A stretch of 64,000 bases of DNA from a virus (IMGVR_UViG_3300029094_000045); one strand, 5' to 3'; shown: positions 1,090-34,270, counted from the first letter of the stretch. The notes: generated from the sequence alone by a model not told the origin. Made by a program: numbers and translations.

Positions 1090-3104
1090 TACAGACCTCC
1101 CTTCCTTAATATCGGTGCTCTAAAGTCAAACGTGAGAGAAGTAGGTCTCCTGTTTTTCTTTTCCATACTACGTTCGACTTGTTGAGCGATATAGTAGTTA
1201 TAAGACAGGGAAGAGTAGCGGTCTTTACGACACCCGGATTTCTCCTTGACCTTAATTACGTTGTTTATTGTTTCATACCCCAGATTAACGAGTTCGTTTA
1301 CGGCCAAGCCTGTATTGATGTACGGCATCTGTAGCGCAGCTCGTTCGCTGGGAGACATTTTGTCATATCCCTTATAGAGTTTTCGTAGTTGATCTTCGCA
1401 ACTATATTCGCTCTGAAGCAAGTGAATACGTCCCTGCTGGAAACCGCTACGGAGCCCGATGGCCACGTCACTGTTAAACTGTGAGCTGCCCATAATGGCC
1501 CAAATAACCTTCTTAGCATTTTTATCAGAACAACGATCGGCTACGTCGGGATTGTTGCAACAGCTAATAGCAGGATAGGTTTCACCGGTTTCGGGGTCGT
1601 ATATATCTTTCATGAGCAAATCAATCAAGGGAATGCCCATAGAGCGAGCATCGATGCCAAGGTAGTCGCAGTCGAAATAATCAAAATAACGACGCAACTT
1701 CAAAGCTTGGTCTTGAGTAATCATACCTTCGACGTTTTCGGAGTAAACGAAATTGCTTGTATAACGTCCGGATTTGTTTGGTACCATGCAATTCAGGAAA
1801 ATACTTGTTGCGTCATTGTCGTTCTTTTTAGAACTCATTAGTGCGATATCAGCAGTCAAAATGCGAATCTCTCCGTTTTTCTTTTTTGGAACGTCAGTCG
1901 CAGTAGGGGAGAGCACAATATTTGGCGCGTAGAATGCCTTTTCAATAACACGAGTTTTGTTGATGTCATCAAACTGGAATAGACCACCCTCGGTAGCTCC
2001 AAGCCATTCGACCATCATTTCCATTGCAAATTTCAGGTCGGAAAAACTGGACTCAGACATTTCATCTTCTACAGCTTCTTTGAGTAGAAGCCCTTCTTTG
2101 ATACTCATACGATAATCAAAAGCACAACAGAAATATTTTTTACTTCGATCAATCATATTCACAAAATAGTCTCTACATTTTTCATAGCTCCAGTGATTCT
2201 GAAACCATGCAGAGCTAAGATAGAATTCTTGATTTCGTTCAGCAAGATGCTTATACTGCGGCTTATCCAAATAACCGGGATGACGAACAATATTCAGGAA
2301 TTTCTTCAGAACCATATTGATAATATCTTCATCCATCATTCTATACTCGTCCACAAGTATTAAGTTTGCTCTCGCGCCACGCGCTGAGTCTGTAGCAGTT
2401 ACAACTTTAACGTAACTGCCGTTTTTAAATATAATTTCTGCTTTTTGATTATTTATATCTACTTTTTTGATTTCGGATTGCAACAAAGGGCTGTTTGGCA
2501 CAAGCTCTTTCATTATTTTTTCATCCAAAATATTTATAGATTGTGTTCGCACTTTACATGCGATGATGCACTTGGTACCCGGCCAGAGAATACATTTAAT
2601 GACAATGAAGACAGCGGTCAGAAAAGATTTGCCTAGCATTGGTTGTTAACCAGTAGTTTTTTATCTACTGCTCTGGAGATTTCTCTCATTTACATCGGGC
2701 TGTCAATTCAGTCCCAGATTGGCGTACATTTTCGCGTCGGACACTCTTGGTGGGATTATATTTATTCACCCACTACGCTCTACGATGGCGGGAAGCCTTG
2801 CGCAATCTTCTCGCTTATCTCGGTATTAGCAGTTAAGCTTTCACCGATATTGCCCGATTTTTTCATTCAAATAGAATGGCGGCCTATAGATTTGACCGCG
2901 AGCGGCAATGAAGCAGAAGCCTGTACATCTCACCATCAAAAATAAAAGAATCTGCTGAAATAGTTTCAAATTCAGATTCAAATATTCTTTGGCAAAACGC
3001 TGCGGATTTTTTCGGTACATTCCGCAGTGCCAAGCGACTGCATTCATTATCTTTTCTGATTTTGTATTTGCTACTTCCTTGTCTGTTAATTTCTTTTCAC
3101 TCAA
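1089..3104 (-). CDS. terL: terminase large subunit, interrupted: exon 1 about 2892..3104, exon 2 1089..about 2645
   Basis: The 516-aa ORF at 1089..2639 opens with LGKSFLTA, the second half of a Walker A/P-loop, and has a Walker B-like LILVDEYR; its frame is closed by TAA two codons upstream of the Met. The 87-aa ORF at 2841..3104 has a TerL-like N-terminus (MYRKNPQRFAKEYLNLNLKLFQQ...) and ends ...FIAARGQ. Joining the two gives ...AARGQ(QPM)LGKSFLTAV, which resembles T4 gp17 SRQLGKT. About 250 nt with stops in every frame separates them. Confidence 0.6.
2646..2891 (-). mobile_element. intervening sequence inside terL; candidate ORF-less group I intron
   Basis: The segment lies between the two terL coding parts, contains stops in the relevant frames so a simple frameshift cannot join them, and ends in ...AAUG (G) directly before the exon 2 codons CUA GGC AAA UCU. 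A ~250-nt length fits small self-splicing group I introns known in phage terminase genes. Exact splice sites and P1-P9 structure were not verified. Confidence 0.35.
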
Positions 3105-4493: not shown

Positions 4494-5183
4494 TTATTTA
4501 TTATTTTCTCTTTTGAAGAATTCATCCCATTGTTTTGCCATCGCCATTGCGACGCCATGGAATGTTTTGGCTCTATTTTTCGCATCCTCTCCACGTTTAG
4601 CTGCACCGCGATTTCTCACAATGCCTTTATTAGCCGATGTTCCACTTGGACAATAAGGTCCTTGCGGAGGTACAGCTTCGACCGGCACCAAAGAAGGGAG
4701 CCCCTTTAGCCACAGACAGGTCTTTTTAGTCCACGGATGCAATTCTCCATAGTATTCGTATGGCTGTATTGTTTGTGTAGGTTTAGGCATTTCATAAACA
4801 GAACTCGGAATGGGGTTTTCCACGCAGATATATTTGATGGGAGCATTATAAAATTTCATAAAGAAATCTTTTGCTTCCAGACCTTTCTGATACCGTTCTT
4901 GGTTCAGCTTATGTCCAGCCTATAGCCATCGTGCGCCCGCATTCGACAGATATGTGCAGGGAGGATGAGCTATTAAAAGATCCCAGCAACCAATATTATG
5001 AGTAGCTCCATCCATAGTAGTTACGATTCCGCTGTTTATAGTGGCAACTGCGTCACTTAAGATATGCTACTCTGGGTGTCCACCAGACGGGGCCTGAACA
5101 TCGCAAGAATAAGCTTCATGCCCAAGTTCTCTAAAGGCGTTGCATACTTCCTGCGATTCTTCGCACGCAATTAAAACTTTCAT
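4494..5183 (-). pseudogene. protein with a C5-methyltransferase motif IV-like PCxxxSxAGxR box; frame carries two in-frame TAG codons (4920..4922 and 5067..5069)
   Basis: Manual translation from the ATG at 5183..5181 reads MKVLIACEESQEVCNAFRELGHEAYSCDVQAPSGGHPE*HILSDAVATINSGIVTTMDGATHNIGCWDLLIAHPPCTYLSNAGARWL*AGHKLNQ... and runs into track ORF 4494..4859 in the same frame. The only two stops in 230 codons are both TAG. No SAM-binding motif I (FxGxGG) was seen, so true methyltransferase activity is doubtful. It is either a decayed gene or one read through by amber suppression. Confidence 0.4.
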
Positions 5184-19853: not shown

Positions 19854-22800
19854 CCTCTTTTCTTTATGCCGTGCGATTAGCGGTCACGGGGAAGATAGTA
19901 ACCGCCCCAACGCGAAAGCGTCAAAAAAATGCAATTAAACACAGTAGGAAAGGAGTCCACCAAGCATGTCTATCATTGCAATCGAATCCGCTTATGACCT
20001 CGCAATCATGTTCGGAGACAAAGAACTTGCTGCCGTATATCGTGAAGCACTTGTCGAGGCCGGCGTTCACTACGAAAGCAAGGCGACGTGCTGGGCTGAC
20101 TGAAAGGAGACTTCAATATGAAATGGATTCTGACCGCCGGGGGTGGATACACTAGTTATCAGGCACAATGTCTGAGCCCGCTCATCTGGTTGCTCGTACT
20201 CGGTGCAATCGGTTACGGCCTGATGGAGTACCTCGAATCGAACCCCAAGACCGCGGCCAAGGTAAACCGCTGGATTGAAAGGAGACTGCATGTTCATTAC
20301 GATGATGATTGAAGCATTCGGTGACGATGAAATCGGTAACATCGATTTTGATGCTCAGGACATCAAGACGCATGAAACTGAAGAAACCGCTATCGAAGAG
20401 TTTCATCGCCTCGAAAAGAAGGCGATAGGTTCTGGCGGCAATGGTTTTTACTATCGTCCGATTAAAATTAAAGTGTAAAGGAGAACACGCAGTAGTATGA
20501 ATGAAATCGAAAATCGAATCGAAGAGTTGAATACAAAGCTCGACGAGGCCGTAGATGTCTATCTGTGCGTGAAAGCAGTATTCAATCTGTATCCTTGTAT
20601 CAGATCAGAACTGGGCCTGCGTCTTGCAGCAAATCGTGTCTCTGCCGCAATCAACCGAACCGAAGAAGCATTACGGCAACTCGAAAAGGAAAAAGCTGTC
20701 ACCGCGCCGCACTTCATTCTTCGTATTGAAACCCCCAATAAGATCCTCGAGTATGAGTACGTGGGCGAATACGATGCTTTCCTTGCTTATAAAAAGGCTT
20801 GCCTTGATATGAAGCTGAGCCGCAAATCTACTCGGGTTTCTCTGAGTCGCGGCGATACCGTGTTCAAGAGCGCTGACCTGATGTGACGCCGCAGAAAGGA
20901 GCTGCGAAGCATGAAGCGCATTCGTCCTGTCCCTGAAGACTCGCGAGTGATTGCTGTGTATCCTATTTGCAATTATGGCGGCGTCGAGATCCTTTCTGTC
21001 AAAGAAGATGTCGATGCTATCAGAGCCGAGGTTGCAATCAATACGGGTGACCGCCGCGAATACAAGGAATTCTACAAAATCAATCGAACAAAAACAACTG
21101 ACCGTGCATTCTTCAAAATGTACGGTCTTCTTTATTATCTGGATCAGTTCCAGCGAATCCGATAAGGGGGCGCAGCAGTGTCTGAAACCTTCTTGGCAGT
21201 GTGTGTCTTGGCTATCTTGGCAATGGGATACGCGCTGTATCTGATCGGCGTAGCAATCTATATGTTGGGTTGCTGTCGCAAATTTAACCGCACAGTCGAT
21301 GTGATTTCACATTGGCTTTTATCATTCTGGGAAGATTGTGTCTATGATGTTATCGTAGTCGCAGCAGCTTTGGTTGTGATTATAATTTCGTTATATGGCA
21401 CTTTCTAGTATACAACAAATCAAAGAAAAGAGGAAATTAAAATGCTGTTTTACCGTGTCAAAGAAGAAGCTGACAAGAAGCCCATGTTTATCAAGAAGCG
21501 CAACGGTATCGAATACTGGTCCATCTACGTCGGTGGCGAATTGTTTACAGCAAACGAGATGGCGCTGCGTCATCTGAATCCGGACTACATGTATCCGGTC
21601 GAAGTGAATCTGCGCAAGACCCAGTTCGTGTTCGGCGCTCGTATGCCGATGCCTGACGCAAATATCACCGCAATTCAGACGAAGAAGAACGAGGAGGGTA
21701 TTTCTAATGAGATGATTAAAAACATTGTCGATTTCGTTTCTGCTGCCGGCCGTCCTCAGTCTGAGCGTAAGCGCGGTGTCGTTCGCGTCTGCAAATCACA
21801 GTCTGGTTCAGTCGCCCACGGCTAACTCGGCGGCGGCACTCAACTCGGCGGGCAGATACATTCTCGGCGGCATTGTTAGCGCGGCGTACTACGAAAACGG
21901 TACGCGAGTTCTGAATATCGTCGATGAGAGTGGCGAAGTCTGGTGTGCAACTGTGCTGAGGACTGACCCGGCGGGTGACTAACCTAGCGAAAAACAACCT
22001 GACGGTTGGGAGGTGACTTAATGGCATCTGAATTTGTTCCTGAGTATGTCGTCGTCGTAGAGATCCCTTATCCGAGACGAATTCAAACCAAGACTACAAG
22101 TTTCGCTACGCTTGAAGAAGCGGCTCGTGAGTATTATGGCTATAAAAATTATATCCGCAATAACGCCGATGGCTATCATGCGTGGCTGAAAAAGAAGTCG
22201 GAAGACGGAAGCTACAAAGTGCTCGAAGAGTGCTCGTATGAGATCCTTCATCCGTCGGAGAAATAAATCTCAAGCGCAACAACCCAAACAAAGTATTCGC
22301 AGAGGGCTCCCCAGCAATAGTTGGGGAGTAATGCGGCTACGGAGACTGCAGAAATCCGTACTGGTCCCAAGCCCAGAACGCAGCAGCGTAAAGAAGCGGG
22401 CGCTCCGCAGCCATAATGAAATCCGATTCGATTTTGATGTGATGGCCACACTGATAAATCGATGACGAGAGTAAATTATGGGGCGTTTCTTGAATGAGCG
22501 AAACTAAACGAAAGGAGGGTTTATAGCTTGAATTGTAAACTTTGTTGCCCGCAATCGGTGGGCGTAGCAGCTGGTGCAAAGGTCGCGTCTTACTCCACTG
22601 AGCGAAATTTCATGGCATGGCGATACAAACTGTTCTGGCACCTAATTTAGATTGAGTTTTTTTGACTGATTTGGCAGTTGATGCTACAGGGGTAGTTGTC
22701 CCCGATATGTTTGATGGGATCATATAATAAAACCTATCTGGTGTCACCGACCATGTTCCTCGCCTGAAATATGGGAGACAAAAATAAGTGAAGGGCGGAT

Positions 22801-29203: not shown

Positions 29204-29281
29204 CCGGGTGTGGCGAAGCTGGTATCGCGCTAGTTTTGGGATCTAGAGATTTCGCCCGTTCGAATCGGGTCACTCGGACCA
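29204..29281 (+). tRNA. tRNA-Pro (anticodon TGG), CCA encoded
   Basis: Acceptor ccgggtg/cactcgg (7 bp including one GU); D stem gcga/tcgc; anticodon stem ctagt/tctag; loop tTTGGGa; T arm gcccg-TTCGAAT-cgggt; then A-CCA. Confidence 0.7.
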
Positions 29282-29423
29282 GTGTGTAGGGTTTCCGCAT
29301 TTTTCCTTACATAACAAACAACTTAGAAACGCCTCCTTTCATTGTGCTGCTTATCACAATCTTTCGATTTCTAAGTTGTCGTGGCTGAAAACGCCGAGCG
29401 GGTACGATAATCCCGTTTTATAT

Positions 29424-29464
29424 GAGGTCAATGATTACTTCTGGGTTTGATTCCCGGAGACCTC
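29424..29464 (+). other. tRNA mini-helix (acceptor stem plus T arm only)
   Basis: gaggtca-(10 nt)-ctggg-TTTGATT-cccgg-agacctc: 6 of 7 acceptor pairs and a 5-bp T stem. At 41 nt it is too short for a tRNA. It sits just 5' of the tmRNA-like gene. Confidence 0.3.
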
Positions 29465-29471
29465 TCTATAT

Positions 29472-29855
29472 GGGCCCGAAAGGTTTTCGACAGGGCTAAG
29501 AAAAAATTACAATTCGCAGGTCGGCCATCACCTTACGAGGCAAAAACAAATAAACGCTAACAACAACAGTTATCGTTGCGCGGCTTGATGCCGTGCCCAA
29601 AACAGCATCCTGATAGGCAGGTAAATGCTTGACGGTTCAAAGAATAAATCCCGGAACCCGATGTAAACGGTAAGAAACACTAGCGTTCTCGGACGTCAAA
29701 ACCGAGTGGTGGAGTGATGTAACAACCGTTACGTCCCTAGGTTTGCTGCGTCGGCGGCATGAATTCCTTTTCAAAATTCTAAATGCTGGCTATTGCGTAA
29801 GAAAATTGTAATTGAGTATTAGTTTTGGACGTGGGTTCGAATCCCACCGGGTCCA
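29472..29855 (+). ncRNA. ssrA: tmRNA (ssrA)-like gene, one-piece, with variant tag ANNNSYRCAA
   Basis: The 5' strand GGGCCCG (29472..29478) pairs perfectly with the 3' strand CGGGTCC (29848..29854) and includes a G3-U70 wobble, the AlaRS identity pair. The conserved 5' motif UUCGACAGGG matches E. coli GAUUCGACGGG. The 3' end GGACGUGGGUUCGAAUCCCACC matches E. coli GGACGCGGGUUCAACUCCCGCC. The tag frame GCU AAC AAC AAC AGU UAU CGU UGC GCG GCU UGA starts about 85 nt from the 5' end, as in E. coli, and encodes ANNNSYRCAA (E. coli ANDENYALAA). Total length ~384 nt. CCA is not encoded. Confidence 0.6.
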
Positions 29856-30264
29856 TAGCGGCGCAAGCCGCAAAGCTAGGTTCGATTCTGTCGGCGTGGA
29901 GTAGCACGTCGGTAGATGGGGTGGCGCAATTCCACCGTGGGTGATCATACTCCCCCTCTGACACATCCATAACGCTCTGACCGAAAATAATAACCATGAT
30001 GCAACGGGAGTAGCTACCCGCCACAGTGGATGTGCATGGCTCTATTATGTGTAGGCGAATATGGCACTGCCTGCGAAAGTGGCATAGATGCTCGGTGCCC
30101 AGAGCATCGGAGAGTGAATTTGAAAGGGCAGCCTTTGAGGATGGACACCATAAGAGACCTATTCGCTTATGTGTTGTATCCACTGACGCGACTGAGTATA
30201 GTGCAGACTTTGTAAGCCGCTTGCTTCTCGCTGATGTCGTTACATGGTTAAATCCTCCTCTCTG

Positions 30265-30342
30265 GGGCTAGTAGCTTAGTCTGGTTAAAGCCGGCAGCTC
30301 ATAACTGCTTGATCGGGGGTTCAAATCCCTCCTGGCCCACCA
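30265..30342 (+). tRNA. tRNA-Met (anticodon CAT), elongator-type, CCA encoded
   Basis: Acceptor gggctag/ctggccc; D stem gctt/aagc; anticodon stem ggcag/ctgct; loop cTCATAa; T arm ggggg-TTCAAAT-ccctc; A-CCA. The anticodon stem lacks the three G-C pairs of initiator tRNAs. Confidence 0.7.
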
Positions 30343-30636
30343 TTTTTAGTAACATTTTGAAAGAAGGTATGAATCATGGCAAATCCGAATATCAAAGAAA
30401 TCGTTGAATGGATGATTGAAAAAGCGAAAGATAGGGCTTCCGATAGCATCGCAGTCATTGATGAAGGAGAAATCGTTAAAGAGTTCGGAGTGGAGTCTGG
30501 ATGGCTTCAGAGCCATGGTCCAGAAATCTATCACGAATGCGATCGGCACTCAGAAGTTTTGGACTCTTTGATTTACACTGGAAATGATAGAGATTATTGG
30601 TCTATTCAGCTTACCATTAACAAGGAGTAAATCAAA

Positions 30637-31329
30637 ATGACTGATAAATATCTCAGTATCATCACGAACTTCGGGTGCCACTACAGCTGCCCTGAGTGTA
30701 TTGTCCGCAATAACAAGCTTAAGATGACACCGACAGTGGAGTATTCCTCTTACGCTCAGCTGTGGCATGTTCTTCATAACGAATGCAATGATTGCGATTG
30801 GGTGTCTGTTTCTGGTGGTGGCGATCCATTGTATCACTGGTGGGAACATCAGGCATGGTGGTTCGGATTCTTCGAGATGTGTTGGCGTTCTTTTCGCAAG
30901 ATTGAGCTGCATACCAGTTACTTTGATGTAGAAAATAATCACGAGATTATGTTGTTTCCGTTTGATAAATTCGACCGTGTTGTCTACCATGTTCACGGGC
31001 TGGATGATCTTGATGAGATTCGTCGTCGAGGCAATGAAATCGTCCGCGTAGTCTTTGTTGTTGATGACGATATGACTGAGGACGAAATCAATGGAATCGC
31101 TGATAATGTAGAAGCGTCAGACCAAATTGACGAGCTTTCGTTCCGGCAGCGTGTGGACGATAACTACGAGGCAACTTATCATCTGCATGATTTCCTGAAG
31201 GCCGGTCATCAGAAACGCTGGTGGTACATTGAACAGTGTGATTACAATATCTACTATCATAACGGTAAGCTGTTCACGAAGTATACCGATATCTTTGATT
31301 CTGAGGCGGTAAGTTATGAAAAAACATAA
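30637..31329 (+). CDS. radical SAM enzyme (QueE-like or RNR-activase-like)
   Basis: N-terminal NFGCHYSCPECI matches CxxxCxxC, and VSGGGDPLYHWW matches the GGE/GGD SAM-binding motif. GCxYSCxxC resembles B. subtilis QueE AGCDYSCSWC. 230 aa with no SPASM-type C-terminal cysteine cluster. Confidence 0.55.
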   Translation: MTDKYLSIITNFGCHYSCPECIVRNNKLKMTPTVEYSSYAQLWHVLHNECNDCDWVSVSGGGDPLYHWWEHQAWWFGFFEMCWRSFRKIELHTSYFDVENNHEIMLFPFDKFDRVVYHVHGLDDLDEIRRRGNEIVRVVFVVDDDMTEDEINGIADNVEASDQIDELSFRQRVDDNYEATYHLHDFLKAGHQKRWWYIEQCDYNIYYHNGKLFTKYTDIFDSEAVSYEKT

Positions 31330-31552
31330 AGATTTATTGCTGGCAGCTTGCGCATCGGCTGTTTCGTTTTTGAGTCTCAATGCCATTTTTGAGAAACTTC
31401 TACGGCACATCTCGCTTGTTCAAATGGCAACAGGAAGTATAAGTTCTCTTTACGGACGTGTCAGCGAGGCGGCTCTTTCGGTATCTGTAGCTCTGTCACT
31501 TGCGATTGGAGCTGTAGTATATATTCTGTTCAAAAATTAAAAGGAGGAACGA

Positions 31553-32464
31553 ATGAAGAATTTCAAAAAGATTTTCGTGGTTTCGTGTGCAATCGTGATG
31601 GCGCTGACCTTTACGGGGTGTACCAAGAAAGAGGTGTATACAATCGAACCTCATGAAACCGCATTTCTGATTTCACTCTCTGAGGGCGGGGAAAATCAGG
31701 CGTCTTTTGAGAGTGAGGCAATGCTCGCCGAGGCAAAGGTGGCAGCCAAGCAGGTATACATTACTTACTCGAAGCGGCATCTGTCACCGACTGACATCCT
31801 TGGTACTTGGGTTCCGGACAACATGTTGGTCATCGTTAATAGAACTCCTGTTACTCGTGAATGGTCCGAGGGCAAGGATAGTGGCACCAGCACTGTCAAT
31901 CAGTCCATCTCTGCCGAAAGCAAGGAGTCTATTGGCTTCTCCGTCGGCATGAACTGCTCTGCTCAGATCTACACTGAAAACGATGCAGTCAAGTTCCTGT
32001 ATTCCTACAACAACAAGCAGCTCTCCGAGATTATGGATACTGAAATCCGTGCGCGTGTAGAAGCTGACTTTGTTGAAAAGTGCGCCAAGTACACCATGAA
32101 TGAGATCCTTGAGAAGAAGGCCGAGATCATGGAGTATGTCCGCAAGGATGTGACTGAGTATTTTGCAGAGCGCGGTATCACGATTACGGTCCTTGGTATG
32201 AAGGATGGCATTGAGTACGACGATGCGTCTGTTCAGGCTGCTATTAACAAGTCCTTTGTGGCCGAGCGCAATGACGAGGCGCAGGAGATTGAGAATCAGA
32301 CCAAGATTTCCAAGGCGAACGCAGAAGCCGAGGCGAATAAAATCATCTCTGAGTCTCTAACTGACCGGCTGATTCAGCAGCAGATGTATGAAAAGTGGGA
32401 CGGTAAGCTTCCGACTTATGTTGGCGGCGATACCAGCGTCCCTGTACTGAACGATATGAAGTAA
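31553..32464 (+). CDS. SPFH (band-7/HflC-like) domain lipoprotein
   Basis: Signal peptide with lipobox ...ALTFTGC; the C-terminal half AEAEANKIISESLTDRLIQQQMYEKWDGKLPTYV is a typical SPFH/band-7 Ala/Glu-rich helix. Confidence 0.5.
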   Translation: MKNFKKIFVVSCAIVMALTFTGCTKKEVYTIEPHETAFLISLSEGGENQASFESEAMLAEAKVAAKQVYITYSKRHLSPTDILGTWVPDNMLVIVNRTPVTREWSEGKDSGTSTVNQSISAESKESIGFSVGMNCSAQIYTENDAVKFLYSYNNKQLSEIMDTEIRARVEADFVEKCAKYTMNEILEKKAEIMEYVRKDVTEYFAERGITITVLGMKDGIEYDDASVQAAINKSFVAERNDEAQEIENQTKISKANAEAEANKIISESLTDRLIQQQMYEKWDGKLPTYVGGDTSVPVLNDMK

Positions 32465-32504
32465 CCTGTGTAAGCAGTGGCGGCTCGGAAAGACGAGCAT
32501 ATAT

Positions 32505-32587
32505 GTTTCGGTGCTGGAATCGGCAGACAGGGGAGTCTCAAAAACTTCTGCGCAAGCATGTGGGTTCAAGTCCCATCCGAAACACCA
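32505..32587 (+). tRNA. tRNA-Leu (anticodon CAA), type II, CCA encoded
   Basis: Acceptor gtttcgg/ccgaaac; anticodon stem ggagt/acttc; loop cTCAAAa; long variable arm; T arm tggg-TTCAAGT-ccca; A-CCA. Confidence 0.65.
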
Positions 32588-32717
32588 GGGCGGACGTTTC
32601 ACCGCCTCTTTTCATACATCTCCTTTCCCTCACAGATGCTTAGTGGTTCATGGGTTCCAGACATGAATCACCGTGACTGAACAAGTCGTAGCAGGTACGC
32701 AATCCTGCTCTTGATAA

Positions 32718-32802
32718 GCCATAGTGGTGGAACTGACATACACTTCCGTTTTAGGGGCGGACGCCGCAAGGATTGAGGGTTTGAATCCCTCCTATGGCAC
32801 CA
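32718..32802 (+). tRNA. tRNA-Leu (anticodon TAG, reads CUA/CUG), type II, CCA encoded
   Basis: Acceptor gccatag/ctatggc; anticodon stem tccgt/gcgga; loop tTTAGGg; 13-nt variable arm; T arm gaggg-TTTGAAT-ccctc; A-CCA. The anticodon is 5'-UAG-3', not the amber-suppressor CUA. Confidence 0.6.
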
Positions 32803-32958
32803 ATCTCGTATGGGTAGGATCTTTAGCGGTCAGATCCGGCCGCGCCTGTGCGAGATACCACCCCGAAAGGGGAAGTTATCCATGATGTCCTTTCTACGCC
32901 CGCTATTCTCGGCTCGCTCGAAAGAGTGCAGCGTGCCTTTGTAAGCCGAGTATCTTAT

Positions 32959-33031
32959 GCAGCCGTAGTGTTAGTGGTTAGCACACCTGCTTCCCAAGCA
33001 GAGAGGGCGAGTTCGAATCTCGTTGGCTGCT
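32959..33031 (+). tRNA. tRNA-Gly (anticodon CCC)
   Basis: Acceptor gcagccg/tggctgc; D stem gtgt/gcac; anticodon stem cctgc/gcaga; loop tTCCCAa; T arm gcgag-TTCGAAT-ctcgt; CCA not encoded. Confidence 0.6.
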
Positions 33032-33207
33032 CTAGAGCTCCTGTGTTTGCGTTGCCCAGCTGTTAGTAATTAGTGTGTGTTGTTATGGTTCATAAAACCT
33101 CCTTTCCGCTTGGCGATATAGGAACTCATTTACCTCTTTTCTTCCTTATTATTCCCGGCTCCATGGCGCATGCTGTGGCAATAAGACGTAGTAAGCCGGG
33201 TTCTTAT

Positions 33208-33279
33208 GCAGCGGTCGTATAACGGCTAGTACATCGTCCTTCCAAGTCGATGGCGTGGGTTCGACTCCCATTCGCTGCT
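33208..33279 (+). tRNA. tRNA-Gly (anticodon TCC)
   Basis: Acceptor gcagcgg/tcgctgc; D stem gtat/gtac; loop cTTCCAa; T arm gtggg-TTCGACT-cccat. Its upstream flank (gtaagccgRg...cttatgcagc) is duplicated with the CCC gene, so this is a tandem duplication that has diverged at the anticodon. Confidence 0.6.
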
Positions 33280-33455
33280 CTACAGGTACTACACCTGAAG
33301 GGGTATGGCAAGATATTTAGCGGGTATACACGTTAAATAAGTCTACTGTATGAGATAAAAGATAGAAACCATAGGAGTGGCTTCCTAATGGGACAGGATG
33401 TGTGGGTTGGCTGCCCTGAGATGAGTCTGATAACCTGTATAAAACAGACTACCGT

Positions 33456-33501
33456 GGGATAACTCGGTGTTGAAGATTGAGTTCAATTCTCAATCATCCC
33501 A
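33456..33501 (+). other. second tRNA mini-helix (acceptor-like stem plus 7-bp T hairpin)
   Basis: gggataa-(12 nt)-gattgag-TTCAATT-ctcaatc-atccc-a; no D or anticodon arms. Confidence 0.25.
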
Positions 33502-33748
33502 ATTCCACCGCGAGGTGGAAGACAGCTTTGCCCATTAGGTCTTTAACAAAATGGGGAATAGGTACATGGTGGTAAAAGGACGATCAAATAATAGCCATGA
33601 CTTCTTTGCTTGACGCCATAAGACTCGGATAGAATGGTCCGATGGGAAGTTGTCCTGCTTGGAGAATCGGGAGTGCAGGTGTACCTAATTTTATATGTAT
33701 ACAAATTTATTTCATATATTAGGAGATGCTGAATTATGGGAGGTTAAT

Positions 33749-34222
33749 ATGATAATTAAAGAAACACCAGAATATAACGTATACCAAAACAAGGATGGTC
33801 GAACAAGAGTTTACATAAAGTCAACACAAAAAATTATGTCATACCCTAAATTTATCATGGAACAAAAACTTGGCAGGTCTCTATTGGCAGATGAAGAGGT
33901 TCATCATATTGACGAGGATTTCACAAATAATGATCCTAGCAATTTGATTGTTTTAGCAAAAGATAAACATCTTGCTATTCATTTGAATGAAAAAACAAAA
34001 TATTACGATAAAATGATGACGTGTCCTATATGCGGAAAAAATTTTTTGTGGACAGCAAAATCACAATCTACATTTTACAGGACAAAAAATCGTAGAATGA
34101 AAAGAAATAAAACCAATACTGTAAATGACAGTCCGTTTTGTTCAAGAGAATGCGCTGGACACTATTCTCAAGAGCAAAAGATTCGCTACCATGGCGAAAA
34201 TGGCAGTACGCTTCGGTCTTAA
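33749..34222 (+). CDS. HNH homing endonuclease with a C-terminal zinc ribbon; its 3' end overlaps the tRNA-Leu(TAA) gene
   Basis: EEVHHIDEDFTNNDPSNLIVLAKDKHLAIH is an HNH motif, followed by CPICGKN...CSRECAGH. Start assigned to the ATG at 33749 after GGAGGT. The TAA stop lies inside the tRNA anticodon loop. Confidence 0.55.
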   Translation: MIIKETPEYNVYQNKDGRTRVYIKSTQKIMSYPKFIMEQKLGRSLLADEEVHHIDEDFTNNDPSNLIVLAKDKHLAIHLNEKTKYYDKMMTCPICGKNFLWTAKSQSTFYRTKNRRMKRNKTNTVNDSPFCSRECAGHYSQEQKIRYHGENGSTLRS

Positions 34223-34270
34223 AAACCGATGTCGAGAGGCGTGCGGGTTCAAGTCCCGCTGGTAGCACCA
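34185..34270 (+). tRNA. tRNA-Leu (anticodon TAA), type II, CCA encoded
   Basis: Acceptor gctacca/tggtagc; D stem gcg/cgc with a 12-nt loop; anticodon stem tcggt/accga; loop cTTAAAa; 13-nt variable arm; T arm gcggg-TTCAAGT-cccgc; A-CCA. Confidence 0.65.

Follow-up and report, generated by a model that had tools for sequence, protein, structure and literature searches.

A probable group I intron without P8 in the Walker A motif of a phage terminase gene

The terL gene of the viral DNA analysed here (IMGVR_UViG_3300029094_000045, 64,000 nt, hereafter the window) lies on the minus strand and, from the ORF list and translation, is interrupted in its ATP-binding loop. The 258-nt insert is very probably an ORF-less group I intron of the phage type (subgroup IA-like), situated in the Walker A motif of TerL, spliced by the mechanism set out below and derived from a mobile ancestor; its splicing chemistry, its self-sufficiency without a cofactor and its homing are what we infer. 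On balance, the sequence comparisons also favour the view that the terL lineage and, independently, an intron in a dUTPase gene are natural group I ribozymes which have lost P8 entirely, 3 nt joining P3 to J8/7. The absence of P8 is the sole unusual trait of an otherwise common phage-type intron.

The interrupted gene and its uninterrupted allele

Exon 1 of terL (3104-2895, minus strand, 70 codons from a TTG start at 3104, from the ORF list and translation) ends ...FIAARG with U2895 as its last base, and exon 2 (2636-1089, minus strand, 515 codons) starts LGKSFLTAV and completes Walker A. The upstream ORF (3104-2841, MSEKK...GFCFIAARGQIYRPPFYLNEKIGQYR) reads across the 5' junction and then stops (...GFCFIAARGQIYRPP...), and the downstream ORF (2639-1089) starts MLGKSFLTAV. 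As the sequence-only reading had proposed, the joined product recreates a Walker A: fusing 3104-2895 to 2636-1089 gives a protein of 585 aa containing AARGLGKS, with a match to Pfam Terminase_6N from residue 64 that is above the cutoff (E=3.6e-7). The break between the exons falls at residue 70/71 in relatives too (tblastn). Among isolates, SPbeta-like Bacillus phages have the closest TerL (~40% amino acid identity).

Blastn of phage records followed by alignment showed that terL is uninterrupted in MT836002.1, a human faecal phage scaffold with 97.4% nucleotide identity to the window in two blocks that cover 87% of the query, and 99.5% amino acid identity. Its junction is CGC GGT|CTA GGC AAA TCT (AARG|LGKS; ...ATTGCCGCTCGCGGTCTAGGCAAATCT... 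in the alignment), with zero bases separating GGT from CTA. The ligated exons of the window are identical to this sequence (CGCGGTCTAGGCAAA) and the reading frame is restored on excision. Since this uninterrupted allele fixes the junction independently, the boundaries of the insert are exact. It occupies 2894..2637 on the minus strand, starts CAAAUC, ends CCAAUG with G2637 as omega-G, and is absent from MT836002/L140; a 1-nt ambiguity in the boundary arises because a C is present at both ends of the insert.

The sequence-only reading had placed an insertion of ~250 nt at 2640-2895. The split gene, the strand and the size class stood, while the ends were off by 1-3 bases and the exact length is that given by the intronless allele. 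The exon ends had been given as FIAARGQ and (M)LGKSFLTAV, which located the split correctly at the P-loop but counted intron bases as exon: the Q codon (CAA) is the first three bases of the intron and the ATG of MLGKS its last three. Exon 1 closes with GGT (Gly, T2895) and exon 2 begins at CTA (Leu, C2636), the intron sits between the codons of Gly70 and Leu71 inside the TerL Walker A, and the restored motif is AARGLGKS and not AARGQ-GKS. The expectation that the insert would have stops, lack an ORF and end in G agreed with what was found, namely six stops in the exon frame (3 TGA and 3 TAA), no ORF on the gene strand and a terminal G2637. A 100-aa ORF on the opposite strand (2643-2945) had no Pfam match.

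Structure of the insert and its RNA family

All of the elements described here are on the minus strand. P1 (2879..2899) pairs exon bases GCGGU (2899-2895) with the internal guide GCCGC (2883-2879, intron bases 12-16) over 5 bp, the splice-site U2895 being paired with G2883. It was recovered by the MFE fold, and the intron has an MFE z-score of -3.5. The P1 loop is 11 nt long and its terminal UAG is able to pair with exon-2 CUA (P10, 3 bp). The U.G rule of P1 is kept in relatives L002 (GACGGU/GCCGUC) and L015 (AGACGCU/GGCGUCU). The P2 hairpin (2864..2878) is CAUUC-UAUUU-GAAUG, and CAUUUC/GAAAUG in endonuclease-carrying relatives. P3 (2857-2852 UCGGGC with 2742-2737 GUCCGA) encloses P4, P5, P6, P6a, the 5' strand of P7 and P7.1 (2737..2857). 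Within it are P4 (2847-2843/2824-2820, UCGGU/ACCGA), P5 (2839-2837/2830-2828) and P6 (2819-2817/2786-2784), and P6a (2814-2807/2795-2788), which has 8 bp, a conserved 11-nt loop and, in the window copy, an A.C mismatch. P7 (2721..2780) crosses P3 to form a pseudoknot, its 5' strand being G2780, the bulged A2779 and GCGUA (2778-2774) and its 3' strand UACGCC (2726-2721). The P7.1 hairpin (2750..2773) has a GUGGG/CCCAC stem and the 14-nt family loop UGAAUAAAUAUAAU. A linker CGC (2736-2734) stands in place of P8 and is followed by the conserved J8/7 GAAAAUG (2733-2727). In the 3' domain (2652..2717), modelled by comparison with L003, L004 and the terL-site variants, P9 (CUG 2717-2715 with CAG 2675-2673) closes a three-way junction with P9a (2714-2709/2702-2698, loop AAUUGA) and P9b (2687-2676, GAGA-GAAA-UCUC); the P9.1 hairpin (2669-2652) is AGUAG-AUAAAAAA-CUACU. 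The 3' end of the family has the consensus GAUAACAA...G, the G being base 2637 here.

Two other pairings were tried and rejected. The first hand-fold, which is also the MFE choice, paired UCGGGC with a downstream GCCCGA. This pairing is broken in L169 and L003, and relatives covary with the upstream GUCCGA, hence the assignment of P3 given above. GAGA-GAAA-UCUC had been read as P8 but, being placed 3' of the P7 3' strand, it must be P9b.

The covariation-supported P3/P7 pseudoknot around P4-P6 with its conserved joiners is the topology of a group I intron. The joiners J3/4, J4/5, J6/7 and J8/7 are AAWA, GAA, GUAGA and GAAAAUG, invariant or nearly invariant at the expected positions and presumably with tertiary roles. 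A bulged P7 beside a G-C pair is the arrangement of the group I guanosine-binding site, and the invariant G2778-C2722 beside the P7 bulge is a candidate for this pair. Subgroup IA introns typically have an additional hairpin separating P7 from P3'; of the subgroup trait P7.1/P7.2, a single hairpin P7.1 is present, with five of its five pairs covarying, and the second hairpin is absent.

Covariation was scored in MAFFT alignments (A2/A3) of 32 compact family members. Overall, 98.8% of cells in these 32 sequences were paired, against 76% in shuffles and 34-44% with the register slid. Double changes were seen in 29 of the 39 pairs, and the observed values were reached in 0/500 shuffles. P3 and P7.1 were each 100% paired, with double changes in four of six and five of five pairs respectively, P6/P6a had double changes in 9/11 pairs, and four of the five pairs of P9.1 covary. 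The six pairs of P7 were paired in 192/192 cells; two of them covary (GC/AU/CG and GC/AU), with a covariation score reached in 0/500 shuffles. The sixth pair, G81-C140, varies as G-C, A-U and C-G and is followed by the 1-nt bulge and the invariant G83-C139.

Covariance model R1 matches the intron core (2721-2860) at 159 bits. For model R2, the terL-site lineage was excluded and only 23 relatives in other genes were used; it gives the window intron 142 bits (E=3.8e-33). Neither R1 nor R2 found the intron a second time in the 64-kb window. Other RNAs found in the window are on the plus strand: a Twister-P5 self-cleaving ribozyme match (22298-22376, 50.7 bits against an Rfam gathering score of 37.6), a phage tmRNA (29472-29858, 93.6 bits, tag ANNNSYRCAA) and seven tRNAs (Pro, Met, Leu x3, Gly x2), which lie with the tmRNA within 29204-34270.

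The search with the Rfam group I model RF00028 that had been suggested as a check gave no match in the window at E<=10 and none in seven relatives. This negative says little, because in a control on the T4 nrdB-td region the same model scored td at 40.3 bits, under the gathering score of 50, and missed nrdB; the model is insensitive to phage introns. When R1 was run without filters on 8 kb of T4, its two best matches, both on the correct strand, fell on P3-P6 of the introns in nrdB and td, though weakly (~10 bits, E ~0.19). The weak alignment to td matched the J3/4-P4-J4/5 and J5/4-P4'-P6 segments, and the family link to the T4 introns is a weak, supportive lead only.

An IMG/VR scan with patterns anchored on the 13-nt P7.1 loop core GAAUAAAUAUAAU gave at least 120 family loci. 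The signature loops of the family are that P7.1 loop, P6a AUUGCGNAAGG and P9.1 AUAAAAAR. By blastn, intron positions ~30-253 resemble intervening sequences of other phages at 67-76% identity. Family members interrupt terL in Staphylococcus phage SA2 and Clostridium phage vB_CpeS-1181, and others are found in the polymerase region of a Leptolyngbya phage beside a LAGLIDADG gene, in a RecD-like helicase of Bacillus phage PJN02 and in the helicase region of the crAss-like phage cr6_1. The genes interrupted thus include terL, DNA polymerase, helicase and dUTPase genes, and homing-endonuclease ORFs often adjoin. The terL insert is a strong, independent member of this widespread phage intron family. 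In the SA2 terL (L002, 3440-3640), AUGAUAUAGUCUAAUCC lies just before exon 2, 3' of the family core and the ORF; AUGAUAUAGUCUAAUCC resembles the classical group I 'S' element, which suggests a second intron or a twintron.

The sequence-only interpretation of the insert as a group I intron is supported by the exact insertion, the U.G of P1, the terminal G, the covarying P3/P7 and P4-P6, and the family membership, from which splicing is predicted. In the terL transcript, the last five bases of exon 1, GCGGU, would pair with the guide GCCGC as P1, with a U.G wobble where cleavage is to occur. The attack after U2895 would come from a free guanosine docked on the invariant G-C beside the P7 bulge. 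The terminal G2637 would then occupy the guanosine site, and the freed 3'-OH of exon 1 would attack after G2637. Ligation would join ...CGC GGU to CUA GGC AAA UCU and a continuous TerL with AARGLGKS would be translated. The ancestor was probably a mobile form with a LAGLIDADG homing endonuclease in the P1 loop, a form surviving in relatives, for which the conserved P-loop coding sequence would be the homing site.

Loss of P8, mobility and rival readings

P8 is a helix of the conserved group I core and part of the P3-P8 stack. In the family, the 3' strand of P3 (..CGA) is followed by a C, a hairpin (P8), the J8/7 GAAAAUG and the 3' strand of P7. P8 is present and covarying in 23 of the 32 aligned relatives. 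From the 3' strand of P3 to J8/7 there are 9-31 nt in 122 of 136 family loci, the shortest P8 of these 122 being a 2-bp stem with a GAAA loop, and 3-4 nt in 14. In the window there is only CGC between GUCCGA and GAAAAUG, and the P8 positions are deleted in both the A3 and the R2 alignments. P8 is absent from 12/12 distinct terL-site variants (24 contigs), which have the linkers CGC, CAC, CGA or UGUGA. It is also absent, together with P2, from the 222-nt intron L015 (1343-1564, plus strand) in a dUTPase gene, where excision joins ...NSPGTIDA to DYRGEI... and a U.G is found at the splice site. L015 is a P8-less member unrelated to the terL-site lineage and, to our knowledge, is among the smallest of group I-type introns. 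A literature search for natural P8-less or minimal group I introns found no relevant description; its coverage was incomplete and an earlier description is possible.

Loss of P8 could impair or abolish autonomous catalysis. Many group I introns require maturases or chaperones and some LAGLIDADG proteins double as maturases. As the relatives encode a LAGLIDADG protein and P8 is absent, it is conceivable, if unlikely, that the insert is a group I-derived intron which no longer self-splices and in which a protein cofactor of the host or the phage offsets the loss of P8; the bI3 intron is an example of a protein-dependent group I intron (PMC2813881). Any such cofactor would have to act in trans because the window copy and most of the terL-site variants are ORF-less. 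No maturase was identified in the window, and the remaining core elements are intact and conserved, which speaks against this reading.

The distribution of the insert bears on mobility and on function. It was found at the same site in 24 IMG/VR contigs (~5-150 kb) representing 12 distinct variants, and can therefore be neither chance nor the assembly error that the sequence-only reading had kept as its alternative. Among 47 full-length TerL relatives in IMG/VR, the intron is absent from 32, 254-259 nt long in 13 and 1281 nt long in one, and presence and absence are intermixed at all levels of TerL identity. In the long forms (L011, L014 and L016) the P1 loop contains a LAGLIDADG ORF (PF14528, LAGLIDADG_3, E=5.9e-10). 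The window copy has neither an ORF nor terminal repeats nor a target duplication, as would fit a derivative of a homing intron that has lost its endonuclease. Conservation is far higher in the intron than at synonymous sites in the exons on either side, a difference that recent horizontal spread could account for as readily as constraint on the RNA.

Two further observations concern terL in relatives. In the intron-bearing L165-L167 and L183, exon 2 is 96% identical in amino acids to that of the window and exon 1 just 81%, while in the intronless MT836002/L140 both exons are 99% identical to those of the window. This mosaic, which has its breakpoint at the intron, is consistent with recombination or with co-conversion during homing. 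L178 and L179 lack the Walker A intron and have another insertion of ~1039 nt (~1462-2500) at terL residues ~166-169, the LILVDEY Walker B region, so that insertions appear to strike both ATPase motifs of terL across relatives.

A much less probable reading is that the insert is a dead group I remnant, its ribozyme destroyed by the loss of P8, terL being a pseudogene in a defective or decaying prophage. Several features could be taken this way: the P3-P8 stack is conserved and P8 is present in ~90% of the family, the window copy has no endonuclease ORF, P6a contains the A.C mismatch, and a methyltransferase gene of the window has two in-frame TAG codons. Against it, the P8-less form persists in 12 variants and 24 contigs with compensatory changes in P3 (C-G to U-A in L170), P2, P9a (CUG/CAG to CCG/CGG) and P9b (GAGA/UCUC to GAAG/CUUC), all within the P8-less lineage. 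The independent P8-less L015 (222 nt) restores GTIDA|DYRGE in the dUTPase on excision, and the P8 lengths of relatives are graded down to 2 bp with GAAA. All intron-bearing relatives keep terL exon 2 colinear over 1545 nt and free of frameshifts, and in these genomes pS is 0.39-0.84 (large or saturated), pN is 0.03-0.12 and dN/dS, where estimable, is 0.02-0.12. The terL of the intron-bearing phages is thus, by these substitution patterns, under strong purifying selection, although the viability of each relative's genome has to be assumed because all are metagenome-assembled contigs. Purifying selection and the compensatory changes together favour a P8-less intron that is functional.

The methyltransferase homologue (4494-5183, minus strand, phrog_757, E=1e-54) aligns in a single stretch over residues 1-227 and has its in-frame TAG codons at 5067-5069 and 4920-4922; it is either a pseudogene or subject to amber read-through or recoding. 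A CUA anticodon is absent from the window's seven tRNAs and no global recoding of the window was seen by an ORF-length test. In-frame TAG codons also occur in relatives, at terL exon 2 codons 211 and 379 of L011, L013, L016 and L018-L021, which are Trp (TGG) in the window, and after ..YADG in the LAGLIDADG ORF of L014, where L016 has Tyr. Protein alignments continue straight across these codons and the aligned residues are aromatic, not Gln, which hints at amber suppression in the phage lineage.

That the insert is not an intron at all, being instead an assembly chimera, a transposon or MITE with a two-polypeptide TerL, an intein, a group II intron or a site of translational bypass, can be given hardly any weight, for although its 258 nt are a multiple of 3 and an ATG stands directly 5' of exon 2, the same insert occurs in independent samples and contigs, neither terminal inverted repeats nor a target-site duplication were found at its ends (2637/2894), a split P-loop cannot bind ATP, and six in-frame stops including TAA exclude an intein or read-through. 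Group II introns have six domains including domain V and usually exceed 400 nt, so 258 nt is too short, and RF00029 had no match in the window. For bypassing of the T4 gene 60 type, the take-off and landing codons must match and lie ~50 nt apart; here the gap is preceded by GGU and followed by AUG|CUA. Stop-codon recoding that would make the insert translatable was rejected, the in-frame stops including TAA and the ORF-length test giving no global recoding in the window.

Significance and comparison with known introns

For annotation, terL here is one gene, neither two fragments nor a pseudogene, and the same holds for dozens of related genomes of gut phages. With at least 120 loci the intron family is large, yet it is invisible to RF00028, and pipelines relying on that model will consequently under-call phage introns and mis-call split genes. 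If the P8-less introns still splice, P8 would be dispensable for the group I core, these RNAs would show the limits of core reduction, and few natural group I introns of protein-coding genes would be as small as L015 and those at the terL site. P8 shrinks by degrees across the family, from 31 nt through a 2-bp stem with GAAA to none, a natural deletion series in a core helix usually regarded as invariant.

The nearest comparison is with the phage subgroup IA introns, such as those of T4 td, nrdB and nrdD, Staphylococcus phage Twort orf142 and the DNA polymerase gene of Bacillus phage SPO1. Like the terL intron, these have a P3/P7 pseudoknot and P4-P6 in a core of the self-splicing type, the extra hairpin between P7 and P3' (P7.1), a position within an essential phage gene at a conserved catalytic motif, and mobile relatives whose peripheral loops contain homing endonuclease ORFs. 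The J3/4-P4-J4/5...J5/4-P4'-P6 region aligns, weakly, with that of td and nrdB. Unlike them, the terL intron has no P8, one P7.x hairpin, no ORF and just 258 nt, and it has signature loops of its own in P7.1 (GAAUAAAUAUAAU), P6a (AUUGCGNAAGG) and P9.1 (AUAAAAAR). It is undetected by RF00028, whereas td reaches 40 bits.

Group I introns in terL are themselves familiar. Lactobacillus phage LL-H has one. In the Bastillevirinae they have been documented in 5 of 52 genomes (PMC11878797). These introns and the terL intervening sequences of SA2 and vB_CpeS-1181 share with the window intron the host gene and the need for removal before packaging, and those of SA2 and vB_CpeS-1181 also belong to the same RNA family. 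They differ in being at other sites, in being mostly 0.8-1 kb with an endonuclease ORF, and in retaining P8.

In size, the terL intron resembles the minimal bacterial group I introns of Azoarcus tRNA-Ile (~205 nt) and Anabaena tRNA-Leu (249 nt), which are likewise ORF-less with a compact core. Those, however, belong to subgroup IC3, interrupt tRNAs at the anticodon loop and have retained P8, a tetraloop-receptor partner of L2 in Azoarcus, whereas the terL intron is in a protein-coding gene and has no P8. As an intron in terL it is a further member of a well-known kind, and the missing P8 makes it a variant.
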